Made by a program: the position numbers and the translations under genes. This document shows, piece after piece, positions 2,535 to 62,223 of a stretch of DNA of 64,000 bases. Location of the stretch: the NCBI RefSeq assembly GCF_030013205.1, contig NZ_CP122648.1. One strand, 5' to 3'. The DNA is from Escherichia coli. GTDB lineage: Bacteria; Pseudomonadota; Gammaproteobacteria; Enterobacterales; Enterobacteriaceae. The notes beneath the pieces were generated by a model. It did not search any database. It had not been told where the DNA came from and was given only the letters and a program-made list of their open reading frames with translations. Each line of letters opens with the position of its first letter. Position 1 is the first letter of the stretch.

Positions 2535-4934
2535 ATGAAGCTAACCGATGCGGATAATGCCGCCGATGGCATTTTTTTCCCCGCCCTTGAGCAAAATATG
2601 ATGGGCGCGGTGTTAATTAACGAAAATGATGAAGTGATGTTTTTCAACCCCGCCGCAGAGAAGCTCTGGGGGTACAAACGTGAAGAAGTTATTGGCAATA
2701 ACATTGATATGCTGATTCCGCGGGATTTGCGTCCCGCGCATCCTGAATACATCCGTCACAACCGTGAAGGCGGTAAAGCGCGCGTCGAGGGGATGAGTCG
2801 GGAGCTGCAGCTGGAGAAAAAAGACGGCAGTAAAATCTGGACCCGTTTTGCGCTATCGAAAGTGAGCGCCGAGGGGAAAGTTTATTACCTGGCGCTGGTA
2901 CGGGATGCCAGCGTAGAAATGGCGCAAAAAGAACAGACCCGACAATTGATTATTGCCGTTGACCATCTCGACCGACCAGTGATTGTCCTCGATCCGGAAC
3001 GCCATATTGTGCAGTGCAATCGTGCATTTACCGAAATGTTTGGTTACTGCATTAGCGAAGCCAGCGGTATGCAGCCCGATACACTCCTGAACATTCCAGA
3101 ATTCCCTGCTGATAACCGCATTCGTTTACAACAGTTGCTATGGAAAACCGCCCGCGATCAGGACGAATTTCTGCTGTTGACGCGCACCGGTGAAAAAATC
3201 TGGATTAAAGCCTCTATCAGCCCGGTCTATGATGTGCTCGCGCATCTGCAGAACCTGGTAATGACTTTCTCGGATATCACCGAAGAACGGAAAATCCGCC
3301 AGCTTGAAGGCAATATTCTCGCCGCCATGTGCAGCAGCCCGCCATTTCATGAAATGGGGGAAATTATTTGTCGTAACATCGAATCTGTACTCAACGAATC
3401 GCATGTTTCGCTGTTCGCGCTGCGCAACGGGATGCCGATACACTGGGCGTCATCTTCGCACGGTGCAGAAGTTCAAAATGCGCAAAGCTGGTCAGCGACC
3501 ATTCGTCAGCGTGATGGTGCGCCTGCGGGGATCCTGCAAATTAAAACCTCGTCAGGAGCAGAAACCAGCGCCTTTATCGAACGCGTGGCAGATATCAGCC
3601 AGCATATGGCCGCGCTGGCGCTGGAACAGGAAAAAAGCCGTCAGCATATTGAACAACTCATCCAATTTGATCCGATGACCGGTCTGCCAAATCGCAATAA
3701 CCTGCACAATTACCTCGATGACCTGGTCGACAAAGCCGTCTCTCCGGTGGTCTATCTCATCGGTGTTGACCATATTCAGGATGTGATTGATAGCCTTGGC
3801 TATGCGTGGGCCGATCAGGCATTGCTGGAAGTGGTCAATCGCTTTCGTGAAAAACTCAAACCGGATCAGTATCTCTGTCGTATCGAAGGTACGCAGTTTG
3901 TCCTCGTGAGCCTCGAAAACGACGTCAGTAACATTACCCAGATCGCCGATGAGCTACGGAATGTGGTCAGCAAGCCGATAATGATTGATGATAAACCATT
4001 CCCGCTTACCTTGAGTATTGGCATCAGCTACGACGTGGGTAAAAACCGCGATTACCTGCTCTCCACTGCTCACAATGCAATGGATTATATTCGCAAAAAT
4101 GGCGGTAACGGCTGGCAGTTCTTCAGCCCGGCGATGAACGAAATGGTAAAAGAGCGTTTGGTTTTAGGCGCGGCGCTGAAAGAAGCAATTAGCAATAACC
4201 AACTGAAACTGGTTTACCAGCCACAAATCTTCGCAGAAACGGGTGAACTGTACGGCATCGAAGCCCTTGCTCGCTGGCACGATCCCCTGCATGGTCATGT
4301 GCCCCCTTCACGGTTTATTCCTCTCGCAGAAGAGATCGGTGAAATCGAAAATATTGGACGCTGGGTCATCGCGGAAGCTTGCCGTCAGTTAGCAGAATGG
4401 CGTAGCCAGAATATTCATATCCCGGCGTTATCCGTTAACTTGTCGGCGTTGCACTTTCGCAGTAATCAGCTGCCTAATCAGGTGTCTGATGCAATGCACG
4501 CCTGGGGTATTGACGGCCACCAGCTGACGGTGGAAATCACGGAAAGCATGATGATGGAACACGATACCGAAATCTTTAAGCGCATTCAGATCCTGCGCGA
4601 TATGGGCGTGGGTTTATCGGTAGATGATTTTGGCACGGGCTTTTCCGGATTATCCCGCTTAGTCAGTCTTCCGGTAACGGAAATCAAAATTGACAAAAGT
4701 TTTGTCGATCGTTGTCTGACCGAAAAACGCATCCTTGCCTTACTTGAAGCCATTACCAGCATTGGGCAAAGCCTTAATTTAACCGTCGTGGCGGAAGGCG
4801 TCGAAACCAAAGAGCAATTTGAGATGCTACGCAAGATCCACTGTCGCGTTATTCAGGGATATTTATTTTCCCGCCCCCTGCCCGCCGAAGAAATTCCAGG
4901 CTGGATGAGCAGTGTGTTACCGCTGAAAATCTGA
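2535..4934 (+). CDS. dosP: Heme-regulated c-di-GMP phosphodiesterase DosP (PAS-PAS-GGDEF-EAL), 799 aa
   Basis: ORF in frame from ATG 2535 with GAGG RBS at 2526-2529; EAL domain at C-terminus; the ORF-track start 2511 is an upstream in-frame ATG without RBS. Confidence 0.9.
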   Translation: MKLTDADNAADGIFFPALEQNMMGAVLINENDEVMFFNPAAEKLWGYKREEVIGNNIDMLIPRDLRPAHPEYIRHNREGGKARVEGMSRELQLEKKDGSKIWTRFALSKVSAEGKVYYLALVRDASVEMAQKEQTRQLIIAVDHLDRPVIVLDPERHIVQCNRAFTEMFGYCISEASGMQPDTLLNIPEFPADNRIRLQQLLWKTARDQDEFLLLTRTGEKIWIKASISPVYDVLAHLQNLVMTFSDITEERKIRQLEGNILAAMCSSPPFHEMGEIICRNIESVLNESHVSLFALRNGMPIHWASSSHGAEVQNAQSWSATIRQRDGAPAGILQIKTSSGAETSAFIERVADISQHMAALALEQEKSRQHIEQLIQFDPMTGLPNRNNLHNYLDDLVDKAVSPVVYLIGVDHIQDVIDSLGYAWADQALLEVVNRFREKLKPDQYLCRIEGTQFVLVSLENDVSNITQIADELRNVVSKPIMIDDKPFPLTLSIGISYDVGKNRDYLLSTAHNAMDYIRKNGGNGWQFFSPAMNEMVKERLVLGAALKEAISNNQLKLVYQPQIFAETGELYGIEALARWHDPLHGHVPPSRFIPLAEEIGEIENIGRWVIAEACRQLAEWRSQNIHIPALSVNLSALHFRSNQLPNQVSDAMHAWGIDGHQLTVEITESMMMEHDTEIFKRIQILRDMGVGLSVDDFGTGFSGLSRLVSLPVTEIKIDKSFVDRCLTEKRILALLEAITSIGQSLNLTVVAEGVETKEQFEMLRKIHCRVIQGYLFSRPLPAEEIPGWMSSVLPLKI

Positions 4935-17435: not shown

Positions 17436-20400
17436 TTACGCCTTCTCGATGTTGACTAAGAACGCTTTATATTCCGGCGTTTGCGAGTTTGCATCACCGA
17501 CATTCGGCGTCAGAGTGTTAGCGATATAACCTTTACGCGCGACACCCTCAAAGCCCCAGTGGATTGGAATACCCACCGTTTCAACCTGCTGACCGTTTAC
17601 ATTCAGCGGTTTCAGACGGCGCGTTACCACCGCCACCGCGCGGATAAAGCCACGCTTGCTTGAGACAGTGACACGATCGCCATTATTAATGCCTTTCGCC
17701 GCCGCCAGCGTTTCGCTGATTTCCACAAACTGTTCCGGCTGAGCAATTGCGTTGAGCAACGCGTGCTTGGTCCAGGTGTGGAAGTGCTCGGTCAGACGAT
17801 AGGTCGTACCCACATACGGGAACTGCTCTTTTTTACCCATCCGCAGCGCGTCTTGTTCATACAGACGAACGACCGGGTTAGACACCACGTTCGGATGCAG
17901 CGGGTTAGTGCCCAGCGGCGTTTCAATTGGCTCGTAGTGTTCCGGGAACGGACCTTCCGCCATTTTGTTGATGGCAAACAGGCGTCCCATCCCTTCCGGC
18001 TGCATGATAAACGGCCCGGTTGGCGTACCCGGCGCGGCATTGCCGAAGTCCGGAATATCGTTACCCGTCCACTTGCTGCCGTTCCACTGGATCAGCATCC
18101 GTTTCGGATCCCACGGTTTACCGCTGATATCCGCCGAAGCACGGTTGTAGAGTACGCGACGGTTGAGCGGCCACGCCCAGGCCCATCCCAGCGTATTCCC
18201 CAGACCGGACGGGTCGGAGTTATCGCGGTTAGCCATCTGGTTGCCCTGCTCTGTCCAGCTACCGGTGTAGATCCAGCAAGACGATGCGGTTGTACCGTCA
18301 TCACGCAGATGCGCAAAGCTACTCAGCAACTGACCTTTCTTCGCAATCAGCACGCCATTAGCATCATAGAGATCTTCCAGCGCATAGCCGTTATTCTCTT
18401 TCGCCACTTCGTCAGACTGCGGTTCGTGCGGCTGCTTGTAGTTCCAGCTCATCTTCATCAGCGGTTCTACGCCTTTACCACCTTCGGCCTGGTACAGCTC
18501 GCGCAGATGATGGTAGATACCCGCCAGAATTTCGCCGTCGTTACGCGCTTCGCCCGGCGCATCCTGACCTTTCCAGTGCCACTGCAACCAGCGACCGGAG
18601 TTAGCGATAGAACCATCTTCTTCAGCAAAGCAGGTCGAAGGCAGACGGAATACCTCAGTCTGAATAGACGCCGGATCGACATCGTTCGACTCGCCGTGGT
18701 TCTGCCAGAAGGTAGAAGTTTCAGTCACCAGCGGATCGATAACCACCATGTACTTCAGCTTGCTCAGGCAGCTCACCACTTTGTTTTTGTCCGGGAAGGA
18801 CGCAACCGGGTTAAAGCCCTGGCAGAAATAACCGGTGACTTTGCCTTCATCCATCATGTTGAAATACTTGATGACGTCGTAGGTCTGGTCCCACTTAGGC
18901 AGCCAGTCGTAGCCCCAGTTGTTCTCTTTCTGCGCGGCATCGCCGTAGAAAGATTTCATCAGGCTAACGAAGAACTTCGGATAGTTGCTCCAGTAGTTCA
19001 CCTGATCAGCCAGCGTCGCTTTCGGCGTGTTCGCTTCCAGATACGACTGCAAATCAACCTGTTTTTCTGACGGCAGCGTCAGATAACCTGGCAGGCTGGT
19101 AGAGAGCAGGCCTAAGTCAGTCAGGCCCTGAATGTTGGAGTGACCACGCAATGCGTTCACGCCGCCACCAGCCATACCCATGTTACCGAGCAGCAATTGG
19201 ATCATCGCCATGGTGCGGATGTTCTGCGCACCCACGGTGTGCTGCGTCCAGCCCAGCGCGTACAGGAAGGTGGTGGTGCGATCCGGCGCGCTGGTGGAGG
19301 CCAGCACTTCACACACTTTCAGGAAGTCGGCTTTTGGCGTACCGCAGATGTTTTCTACTACATCCGGCGTGTAGCGGGAAACGTGCTCTTTCAGCAGGTT
19401 CCACACACAGCGCGGATGAGTCAGTGTTTCATCGCGTTTCGCATAGCCGTTTTCATCGAACTGATAGTTCCAGGACGATTTATCGTACTGGCGTTTTTCA
19501 GCGTCGTAGCCGCTGAACAGACCGTCTTCGAAAGCAAAATCATCACGCACCAGCAGGCTGGCATTGGTGTAATGCTTAACGTATTCGGCATTGATTTTGT
19601 TGTTTTCGATCAGGTAGCGCAAAACGCCAGACAGGAACGTAATGTCCGTACCGGAACGAATAGGTGCGTAAATATCCGCTACAGAAGCGGTACGCGTAAA
19701 ACGGGGATCGACAACGATCAAGGTTGCATCGTTGTTGTTTTTCGCTTCCATCGCCCAGCGGAAACCGACGGGATGCGCTTCAGCAGCGTTACCGCCCATC
19801 ACCATCACGACGTTAGCGTTTTTGATATCCACCCAGTGGTTGGTCATCGCACCGCGACCAAATGTTGGAGCAAGACTTGCTACCGTTGGTCCGTGTCAGA
19901 CGCGCGCCTGGTTGTCTACCGCCAGCATCCCGAGGGAGCGGGCAAATTTCTGGGTCAGCATCCCGGTTTCGTTGCTGGCACCGGAGGCACACAGCATACC
20001 GGTAGAAAGCCAACGGTTTACCGTTACGCCCTGCTCGTTCTTTTCAATAAAGTTAGCGTCACGGTCAGCTTTCATCAGCTTCGCAATACGGGAGAATGCT
20101 TCTTCCCAGCTAATGCGCTGCCATTTGTCAGAACCTGGCGCACGATATTCCGGGTAGCGCAGACGGTTTTCGCTGTTGACGTAATCCAGCAAACCGGCCC
20201 CTTTCGGGCACAGCGCACCACGGCTTACCGGATGATCCGGGTCACCTTCAATGTGATAAATCGCTTCTCTGGCGTTTTTCGCGCCATCACCCAGGCTATA
20301 CATCAATAGCCCGCAACCTACGGAACAGTATGTGCAGGTGTTACGGATCTCTTTAGCGCGTAATAATTTGTAGTTTCGCGCCTGAGCCAGTGCTTGCTTT

Positions 20401-59465: not shown

Positions 59466-59749
59466 TACCGTTGTCTCTCTTCCAGGTTTACTCCTGATAG
59501 AAAGTCATCGGCACTTGACGGTAATTTCTTACGACCAAAAACCTCTTTGCGTCACATTTTTACAACAATTATGGCAGAGAAGAATAATGCCATTGGAATG
59601 AAGAGAGTAACGAATGATTAAACTGGCTAAACCGAATGACGAAAAATTCTGGAAAACAGCACGCAATTTCGTGAAGTGATTATTTTCGTCCCTAAGGAAA
59701 CCTCATAGGATGCCTGCGGGTGCCTGAGACTTTCTGTTTTCAGGCTAAC

Positions 59750-59805
59750 CGGGAATCAGAAAGACGAAGGCCCCGACCGATATTTCTATCAACCGAGGCC
59801 AACGA

Positions 59806-59815
<10 letters not shown>
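59750..59815 (-). ncRNA. sokB: Probable SokB antisense RNA region of the hokB/mokB/sokB type I TA locus (coordinates approximate)
   Basis: Inferred from the hok/sok architecture (antisense overlapping the mok start); not directly delimited. Confidence 0.3.
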
Positions 59816-60013
<198 letters not shown>

Positions 60014-60084
60014 GGGCAAGCGCGGGGATTTTCCCCGCGCATCTGACTAGCAGATTCATTTTCTCATGGCACCCCTTTTACACT

Positions 60085-60258
60085 TCAGTTAGTGCATGTT
60101 TTTTTCGATGCACTAATAGAACCATCATTACAGACAAATTTGCCGCCTGCCGTACAGTGTGAGATCCCCCCTTTCGAACCAGAACAGGGTTTGCGCCCGG
60201 CATCGGCATAAAAGGAAACAAGCGTTCCCATAAACAAGATAAGTGCCAGTTTTTTCAT
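60085..60258 (-). CDS. ydcA: Small Cys-rich lipoprotein-like protein YdcA (57 aa)
   Basis: Hand translation MKKLALILFMGTLVSFYADAGRKPCSGSKGGISHCTAGGKFVCNDGSISASKKTCTN with GGAGG RBS. Confidence 0.7.
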   Translation of the reverse strand: MKKLALILFMGTLVSFYADAGRKPCSGSKGGISHCTAGGKFVCNDGSISASKKTCTN

Positions 60259-60428
60259 ATAACCTCCATGGTTTATCGAATCTTATGTTCGATTTGAACG
60301 TTATACGCTGGTTTATTTTGATACCGTTGATGAGATCAAAGATCGGGCGAATTGATTAAAGATAAGCCAGATGGACGTATGGATAAGGATTATGGTTTTA
60401 TTTGTCATACAAATAAATATAATAGGCG

Positions 60429-60493
60429 CTTCCGATGTAGACCCGTATTCTTCGCCTGTACCACGGGTCGGTTTTAGTACAGGCGTTTTCTTT
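60429..60493 (+). ncRNA. rydC: Hfq-dependent small RNA RydC (about 65 nt) ending in an intrinsic terminator
   Basis: Sequence cttccgatgtagacccgtattcttcgcctgtaccacgggtcggttttagtacaggcgttttcttt recognised from memory as RydC; terminator hairpin cctgtac/gtacagg plus T-run; convergent with cybB. Confidence 0.6.
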
Positions 60494-60502
60494 AAATATC
60501 CT

Positions 60503-61033
60503 TCAGGAACGTTTACGCGGCATCATGCGTAGAAGTGTGTTGTCCTTCCAGAAATAGTGGTGTGCCAGTGCAGCCGCAGCGTGCAACCCGATGACAAAAT
60601 ATCCCAGATTCGCCAGCGTCTCATGCCACGACTTTAAGCTATCAACCCGTTCGAAATTGGCCTCTGATGCATAAGGCATCGTCATACCAAACGCAAACCA
60701 CGGGTTACCCCGGTTATACATCATCACCAAACCAATCACTGGCAGCGCAATAAACAGGAGATAGATCACCAAATGTCCCAAATGCGCCAGTCCCGTCATC
60801 ATCGGTTTTGGCTTAGGTATAATCGGCGGGGTTGGGTATTTCAGCCTTAACAAAAGACGAACCACCATCAGCACGAGAATTGATATGCCACAGGAAACAT
60901 GAATCATGTTGATGAGTGGTCGATCGCTACGTGGGAAGAAACCCCGAAACTCCATTGCGCAATACGCTGCGATAACCAGCAAAAAGACCAGCCAGTGAAT
61001 GCTGATTTGTAACCTTGAGTATTTATTTTCCAT
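60503..61033 (-). CDS. cybB: Cytochrome b561 CybB (176 aa)
   Basis: Start at internal ATG 61033 (MENKYSRLQISIHWLVF...). Confidence 0.9.
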   Translation of the reverse strand: MENKYSRLQISIHWLVFLLVIAAYCAMEFRGFFPRSDRPLINMIHVSCGISILVLMVVRLLLRLKYPTPPIIPKPKPMMTGLAHLGHLVIYLLFIALPVIGLVMMYNRGNPWFAFGMTMPYASEANFERVDSLKSWHETLANLGYFVIGLHAAAALAHHYFWKDNTLLRMMPRKRS

Positions 61034-61221: not shown

Positions 61222-62223
61222 ATGAGTAAAGTTGGTATTAACGGTTTTGGTCGTATCGGTCGACTGGTGTTGCGTCGATTACTTGAAGTCAAAAGCAACA
61301 TAGACGTTGTCGCTATTAATGATCTCACTTCCCCAAAAATTCTCGCCTACCTGCTGAAACATGATTCAAACTACGGACCGTTCCCCTGGAGCGTTGATTT
61401 TACGGAAGATTCACTTATCGTTGATGGAAAAAGCATCGCGGTTTACGCCGAAAAAGAGGCTAAAAATATTCCGTGGAAAGCGAAAGGCGCAGAAATCATT
61501 GTCGAATGTACTGGCTTTTATACCTCCGCCGAGAAATCGCAGGCGCATCTTGATGCTGGTGCGAAGAAGGTGTTGATTTCCGCCCCTGCCGGTGAAATGA
61601 AAACCATCGTTTATAACGTCAATGACGACACACTGGATGGCAACGACACCATTGTTTCCGTGGCGTCATGCACCACTAATTGTCTTGCACCGATGGCCAA
61701 AGCCTTGCACGACAGTTTCGGAATAGAAGTCGGCACGATGACGACCATTCATGCCTATACCGGCACTCAGTCACTGGTGGATGGCCCGCGTGGTAAAGAT
61801 CTACGCGCTTCACGTGCAGCGGCAGAAAATATCATTCCCCACACTACGGGGGCGGCAAAAGCCATTGGTCTGGTGATCCCAGAACTGAGCGGCAAACTGA
61901 AAGGTCATGCACAACGCGTACCCGTGAAAACCGGTTCGGTGACTGAACTGGTGTCTATTCTTGGAAAAAAAGTGACTGCCGAAGAGGTGAACAACGCGCT
62001 TAAAAACGCGACAAACAATAACGAGTCATTTGGTTATACCGATGAAGAAATAGTCTCTTCTGATATCATAGGCAGCCATTTCGGGTCGGTGTTTGATGCC
62101 ACGCAAACCGAAATTACCGCCGTGGGCGATTTACAACTGGTGAAAACGGTCGCCTGGTACGATAACGAATATGGCTTCGTCACACAGCTCATTCGCACCC
62201 TCGAAAAATTCGCTAAACTCTGA
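61222..62223 (+). CDS. gapC: Intact glyceraldehyde-3-phosphate dehydrogenase GapC (333 aa); this gene is a split pseudogene in K-12
   Basis: Uninterrupted ORF with NAD-binding GFGRIGR and catalytic SCTTNC motifs. Confidence 0.88.

Follow-up and report, generated by a model that had tools for sequence, protein, structure and literature searches.

The stretch of DNA analyzed here, called the window below, comprises 64,000 nucleotides of Escherichia coli contig NZ_CP122648.1, and all positions are counted from its first letter. Between ydcA and cybB the window carries the gene of the small RNA RydC, together with its promoter and a candidate operator. The features of this locus are listed below with their coordinates and strand.

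60085-60258, minus strand: ydcA, encoding a 57-aa periplasmic protein, from its open reading frame (ORF) and annotation; divergent from rydC and 5' of it.
60400-60414: palindrome ATTTGTCATACAAAT (-29 to -15), candidate YieP operator of rydC and the divergent ydcA; core of a repeat at 60397-60417.
60418-60423, plus strand: -10 box TATAAT (-11 to -6) of the sigma-70 rydC promoter, read from the sequence; 5 nt before C60429.
60429-60493, plus strand: rydC, the Hfq-dependent sRNA RydC, 65 nt, starting at C60429; assigned from Rfam RF00505, identity to b4597 and single copy.
60429-60441, plus strand: 5' single-stranded seed, nucleotides 1-13 (CUUCCGAUGUAGA), unpaired in the Rfam consensus and the minimum free energy (MFE) fold; nucleotides 3-13 pair with cfa.
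60440-60469, plus strand: pseudoknot stem I, a 7-nt perfect inverted repeat in which GACCCGU (60440-60446) pairs with ACGGGUC (60463-60469); the helix of the Rfam model.
60453-60485, plus strand: pseudoknot stem II, serving at the same time as hairpin of the Rho-independent terminator, with CGCCUGUAC (60453-60461) as its 5' arm and GUACAGGCG (60477-60485) as its 3' arm.
60486-60493, plus strand: 3' U-rich tail UUUUCUUU, read from the sequence as the terminator T-tract and as the segment for the Hfq proximal face, a role taken from PMC4337610.
60503-61033, minus strand: cybB (cytochrome b561 / superoxide oxidase), a 531-nt ORF annotated in the identical stretch of NZ_CP062203.1 and in K-12.

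A scan of the whole window with Rfam 15 at gathering thresholds returned three matches, one of which was RF00505 (RydC) at 60429-60492 on the plus strand. It covered model positions 1-64 of 64 with a score of 92.5 bits (E 5.2e-17), where the gathering score is 48. An earlier sequence-only reading had recognized a 65-nt RydC at 60429-60493 and named a covariance-model scan as one way to check it; the scan was run, the score was nearly double the gathering score and the coordinates proved exact. The letters of this interval, read directly, are CTTCCGATGTAGACCCGTATTCTTCGCCTGTACCACGGGTCGGTTTTAGTACAGGCGTTTTCTTT, and they are identical at all 65 of 65 positions (100%) to rydC of E. coli K-12 MG1655 (b4597, NC_000913.3 1491442-1491506), whose curated record shows ncRNA rydC between cybB and ydcA. 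We are nearly certain that 60429-60493 is the rydC gene of Escherichia coli. What places this assignment beyond chance is the covariance-model score, the identity to a characterized gene and the covariation described below, and not folding energy.

Among 5426 complete E. coli genomes, a 1.7-kb query around rydC was matched in 5417, with 100% identity to several swine isolates, mostly ETEC. The 65-mer itself was present as a single copy in 5411 of the 5426, at an identity of at least 99% in 4063 of these. The region was also present on five E. coli records labelled as plasmids, which may be mislabelled chromosome fragments or chromosomal segments carried on large plasmids. That ORF-based annotation would overlook this RNA had been anticipated by the earlier reading, and RefSeq/PGAP records with the identical sequence indeed list no feature there; rydC is annotated in the curated K-12 record only.

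The gene order around rydC agrees with published synteny. As the sequence-only reading had described, RydC is convergent with cybB, which lies on the minus strand just past the RydC 3' end, with a gap of 9 nt to the cybB stop codon. On the 5' side, rydC and ydcA have in common an intergenic region of 170 bp. The same arrangement, cybB 3' and ydcA 5' of rydC, is reported for E. coli and Shigella, while in Salmonella the 5' neighbor is STM1638, not ydcA (PMC11340327). Compared with E. coli K-12 (b4597), the present locus has the same RNA, start, -10 box, pseudoknot/terminator, U-tail, seed and cybB/ydcA synteny. The RNA shows no difference; the 251-bp context aligned (60260-60510) contains five substitutions, all upstream of the transcription start, one of them being G60405, which is A in K-12.

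Three perfect inverted repeats were found within 60260-60520, namely stem I, stem II and a palindrome in the promoter. Stem II as DNA is a 9-bp perfect inverted repeat, CGCCTGTAC/GTACAGGCG (60453-60461 and 60477-60485), whose 5' arm falls within the loop of stem I, giving an H-type pseudoknot. RydC has been described as an H-type pseudoknot of S I and S II (PMC4337610, PMC3985669). The strong terminator hairpin and 5' single-stranded region noted earlier are thus both present, the latter as nucleotides 1-11, which both the Rfam consensus and the MFE fold leave unpaired, and the description can be refined in that the terminator hairpin doubles as stem II of the pseudoknot. In isolation the stems fold at -10.5 (stem I) and -13.7 kcal/mol (stem II). 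The nested MFE fold recovers stem II alone (-14.4 kcal/mol), which is also the centroid structure. The MFE of the 65-mer was no better than that of shuffled sequences (z -0.69; 43 of 200 shuffles folded at least as well). Since nested-only folding cannot score a pseudoknot, this z-score is uninformative and covariation was used instead.

Homologues were retrieved from species-representative genomes via an 18-nt seed pattern, and nine of the retrieved loci, from Escherichia, Salmonella arizonae and five Citrobacter species, gave Rfam RydC matches. Pattern matches in MAGs of Clostridia, Terrabacteria and Kiritimatiellae (L006, L009 and L015) had no Rfam RydC match and were treated as chance; we estimate that some tens of chance matches are to be expected for a 17-base pattern when about 6e11 positions are scanned. 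The S. diarizonae locus (L013) was left out because its sequence stops at the locus end. At the Citrobacter koseri locus (L007), a fluoride riboswitch (Rfam RF01734, 50.2 bits) was seen at 3981-4053 on the minus strand, about 4.6 kb from rydC.

Nucleotides 1-18 are invariant in the 10-sequence alignment, although the retrieval pattern itself fixes 17 of these 18. All seven pairs of stem I are likewise invariant in the eight distinct homologues, so that this helix is uninformative on pairing and has no covariation support of its own. Stem II is different: 100% of its alignment cells are paired, and compensatory double changes occur at four of the nine pairs among Escherichia, Salmonella and Citrobacter. 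None of 500 shuffles reached its covariation score, and in a control with a slid 3' partner its pairing fell to 27-47%. The S. arizonae RNA illustrates the compensatory pattern, with GCGU/ACGC in stem II where the present strain has UAC/GUA. Salmonella enterica RydC has an identical seed (nucleotides 1-18), stem I and architecture and keeps the U-U steps and the U-tail; Salmonella RydC differs from the present RNA by two 1-nt insertions.

The rydC promoter has a perfect TATAAT, no recognizable -35 box and a transcription start at CUUCCG, and it has been described likewise, with a perfect -10 and no -35 (PMC11340327). TATAAT is found in 10 of 11 aligned rydC promoters, the exception being C. 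koseri with TATACT, and sequence further upstream diverges. A consensus promoter scan did not report this promoter because the -35 is absent, and a simple promoter/terminator scan missed the RydC hairpin because of its 15-nt loop. Promoter and terminator were instead established from sequence, alignments and literature.

Directly upstream of the -10 box lies a perfect inverted repeat of 9+3+9 nt, TTTATTTGT-CAT-ACAAATAAA (60397-60417). Its core, ATTTGTCATACAAAT, overlaps the rydC promoter and, read as reverse complement, agrees with the ChIP-exo motif of YieP, atTTGTaTGAcaAAT (PMC7642389), at all 15 of 15 positions, and 60400-60414 is the sole site with fewer than three mismatches to this motif in the 64-kb window. 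For comparison, the best-characterized YieP target, yohJK, has in K-12 a 12/15 site a short distance before its start codon. Escherichia, Salmonella and Citrobacter all keep a YieP-like palindrome, with divergent sequence farther upstream; in C. koseri the motif is in the opposite orientation, ATTTGTATGACAAAT. The K-12 equivalent is ATTTATCATACAAAT, matching the motif at 14 of 15 positions with one mismatch. Position 60405 (plus strand), in the left half-site, is G here and A in K-12 MG1655, and it is the G that makes the palindrome perfect. K-12, the strain of the published genetics, thus carries an imperfect palindrome.

YieP is a GntR-family regulator, and deletion of yieP raises rydC'-lacZ 20-fold and renders RydC detectable (PMC11340327). 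The palindrome-motif match fits this published repression. PMC11340327 reports no YieP binding site, EMSA or footprint at rydC. Judging from the motif, 60400-60414 is probably the operator of YieP as a GntR/FadR-type repressor, bound at this exact site. We considered presenting the match as a new finding and dropped this, since rydC and ydcA are already named among the candidate YieP target operons chosen from combined ChIP-exo and RNA-seq data (PMC7642389). The match is a refinement of the published YieP result to base-level placement and not a discovery.

The seed of RydC can base-pair with the published site in the cfa 5' UTR, in line with the earlier description of this RNA as a regulator of cfa mRNA. 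Since cfa lies outside the window, the duplex was computed on the K-12 gene and not on that of the present strain; the cfa 5' UTR was found in 5424 of 5426 E. coli genomes. With RNAduplex, nucleotides 3-13 of the seed paired with -109 to -99 of the K-12 cfa leader (212 nt) in an 11-bp duplex of -18.3 kcal/mol, which was equalled by 10 of 1000 shuffled seeds. C5 pairs with G-101 in the computed duplex, a pair validated by the compensatory mutations C5G/G101C (10.1101/271551). When the 12-nt seed was looked for in the K-12 cfa leader as a plain reverse complement with at most two mismatches, no site was found; the real duplex uses nucleotides 3-13 and includes a G-U pair.

RydC requires Hfq, and in the crystal structure, which was obtained with Salmonella enterica RydC, the 3' U-tail lies in the proximal pore, U23/U24 and U46/U47 touch the rim and the 5' seed takes an extended form (PMC4337610). 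The contact nucleotides U23/U24 and U46/U47 and the U-tail are all present in our sequence, where their presence alone was tested. RydC activates the long cfa isoform via pairing with its 5' UTR, by which an RNase E site is protected and Rho is counteracted (10.1101/271551; PMC11340327). Activation of cfa by Salmonella RydC is credited to Frohlich et al. 2013 (in 10.1101/271551).

Drawing on this literature on the identical K-12 RNA and on the Salmonella RNA, the following course can be proposed. The sigma-70 promoter, with its perfect -10 box and without a -35 box, would drive rydC, which the GntR-family repressor YieP would normally hold off. The 65-nt transcript would end at the intrinsic terminator and fold into the H-type pseudoknot, leaving about 11 nt free at the 5' end. 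The proximal face of Hfq would then grip the 3' U-tail of the RNA and its rim would hold the steps U23/U24 and U46/U47, and the free seed could pair with the long, sigma-70-dependent cfa mRNA isoform at -109 to -99. Such pairing would mask the RNase E site and counteract Rho-dependent termination in the cfa 5' UTR, and the expected outcome would be more cyclopropane fatty acid synthase and altered membrane lipids. Further targets in the literature, weaker or repressive, are yejABEF, csgD, trpE and pheA, and RydC may act on these as well. For the present strain, expression of RydC, its binding to Hfq and the regulatory outcome are presumed from the literature and from the identity with the K-12 allele.

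Two other Hfq-dependent sRNAs act on the long cfa 5' UTR. The site of ArrS overlaps that of RydC and ArrS also activates (10.1101/271551), whereas CpxQ binds upstream and represses. Both are unrelated to RydC in sequence and locus, and neither is present at 60429-60493.

The identity, structure, covariation, promoter and synteny of RydC and the complementarity of its seed to cfa were observed in this analysis, and other accounts of the same letters can be weighed with these observations in hand. The product could be a small protein rather than an RNA, encoded by a plus-strand ORF of 41 aa (60352-60477) or of 53 aa (60371-60532), both of which are in the mechanical ORF list. However, 1-nt indels between homologues inside RydC (alignment columns 20, 35 and 44) shift any frame, and the substitutions are paired, compensatory and helix-preserving instead of codon-like, which together exclude a protein product to the point that we give it practically no chance. 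In addition, the N-terminal part of the ORFs would be encoded ahead of the promoter core, where the sequence is not conserved between genera, and the curated K-12 record has an ncRNA at this place.

It is also very improbable that the hairpins are merely the terminator or a 3' UTR structure of cybB, with no separate gene. Such a role would fit the gap of just 9 nt between RydC and the cybB stop codon, and a minus strand that folds stably too (-29.8 kcal/mol, z -2.5 over 60380-60510); cybB transcripts may stop here or continue across the region. Yet on the minus strand both hairpins lack a downstream U-tract, whereas the plus strand has a well-placed, conserved TATAAT promoter and a U-tail. Conservation is highest in the seed, for which a cybB terminator would have no use (the retrieval pattern covered nucleotides 1-18), and in Klebsiella and Enterobacter rydC is located away from cybB (PMC11340327). 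As a secondary role, the rydC region may serve as a barrier to cybB read-through. Finally, the sequence could be a decayed or silent copy that is non-functional in the present strain, an account in keeping with the report that RydC is barely detectable in the wild type under laboratory conditions owing to YieP repression (PMC11340327). We regard this as hardly conceivable for an RNA that is 100% identical to the functional K-12 allele and whose -10 box and transcription start are undamaged; moreover, 3962 of 5413 E. coli genomes agree fully with the window over the 51-nt promoter segment that includes the palindrome, which indicates purifying selection and not decay. A functional rydC gene is the reading that we retain, and none of our observations speaks against it.

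Other elements were seen near rydC. On the ydcA side lies a hokB/mokB/sokB type I toxin-antitoxin locus, with the hokB ORF at 59864-60013 and a mokB-like ORF at 59806-59973, both on the plus strand. The Rfam match RF01794 'sok' (113.8 bits, 59718-59869) is on the plus strand, the strand of the hokB mRNA leader, and thereby disagrees with the K-12 annotation, which maps sokB to about 59760-59816 on the minus strand of the window. The 22-aa ORF yncP, listed in RefSeq and K-12, is located at 59991-60059 on the minus strand (mapped from positions 1892-1960 of locus L001) and overlaps the hokB 3' end on the opposite strand. On the cybB side, a gapC-type glyceraldehyde-3-phosphate dehydrogenase gene at 61222-62223 (plus strand) has an intact 333-aa ORF. 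An intact 'gap' is annotated in the identical stretch of the related strain K_EC180, while gapC of K-12 MG1655 (b4493) is a pseudogene.

Further away, Rfam matched SECIS_3, a bacterial selenocysteine insertion element, at 19843-19901 on the minus strand (84.3 bits); judged by the gene order of K_EC180, it appears to lie inside fdnG, the gene of the formate dehydrogenase-N alpha subunit. In the region of about 27374-32130, narZ is apparently truncated, its 975-aa ORF ending at 30301, where a stretch aligned to IS91 repeats starts. Next to it is an element of the IS91 family that contains a transposase ORF (30703-31935) as well as a small ORF (30383-30748), and beyond this element come pqqU/yncD-ydcR-ydcSTUV-patD-curA. 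This arrangement suggests an IS91-associated deletion of the remaining narZ operon. K_EC180 has two IS91 copies and is without the 12.4 kb corresponding to window positions 32132-44567. Colinearity of the whole window with K_EC180, which is 100% identical around rydC, was considered and rejected; for the differing 12.5 kb the best full match was the swine ETEC strain ETEC4079 at 100%.

Since automated RefSeq/PGAP annotation omits rydC, a covariance-model pass is needed to recover it. Beyond annotation the significance of the gene is small: RydC belongs to the textbook Hfq-dependent sRNAs, its complex with Hfq has been solved, its main target (cfa) and its repressor (YieP) are known, and the RydC found here is already known and ordinary, with no new element in the RNA itself. 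The operator match provides a concrete hypothesis for direct repression of rydC by YieP and flags the variant half-site of K-12. It is conceivable, and we put this forward tentatively and at less than even confidence, that the palindrome at -29 to -15 serves both rydC and ydcA and that the G/A polymorphism tunes the repression of RydC and of cyclopropane fatty acid synthesis across E. coli lineages.
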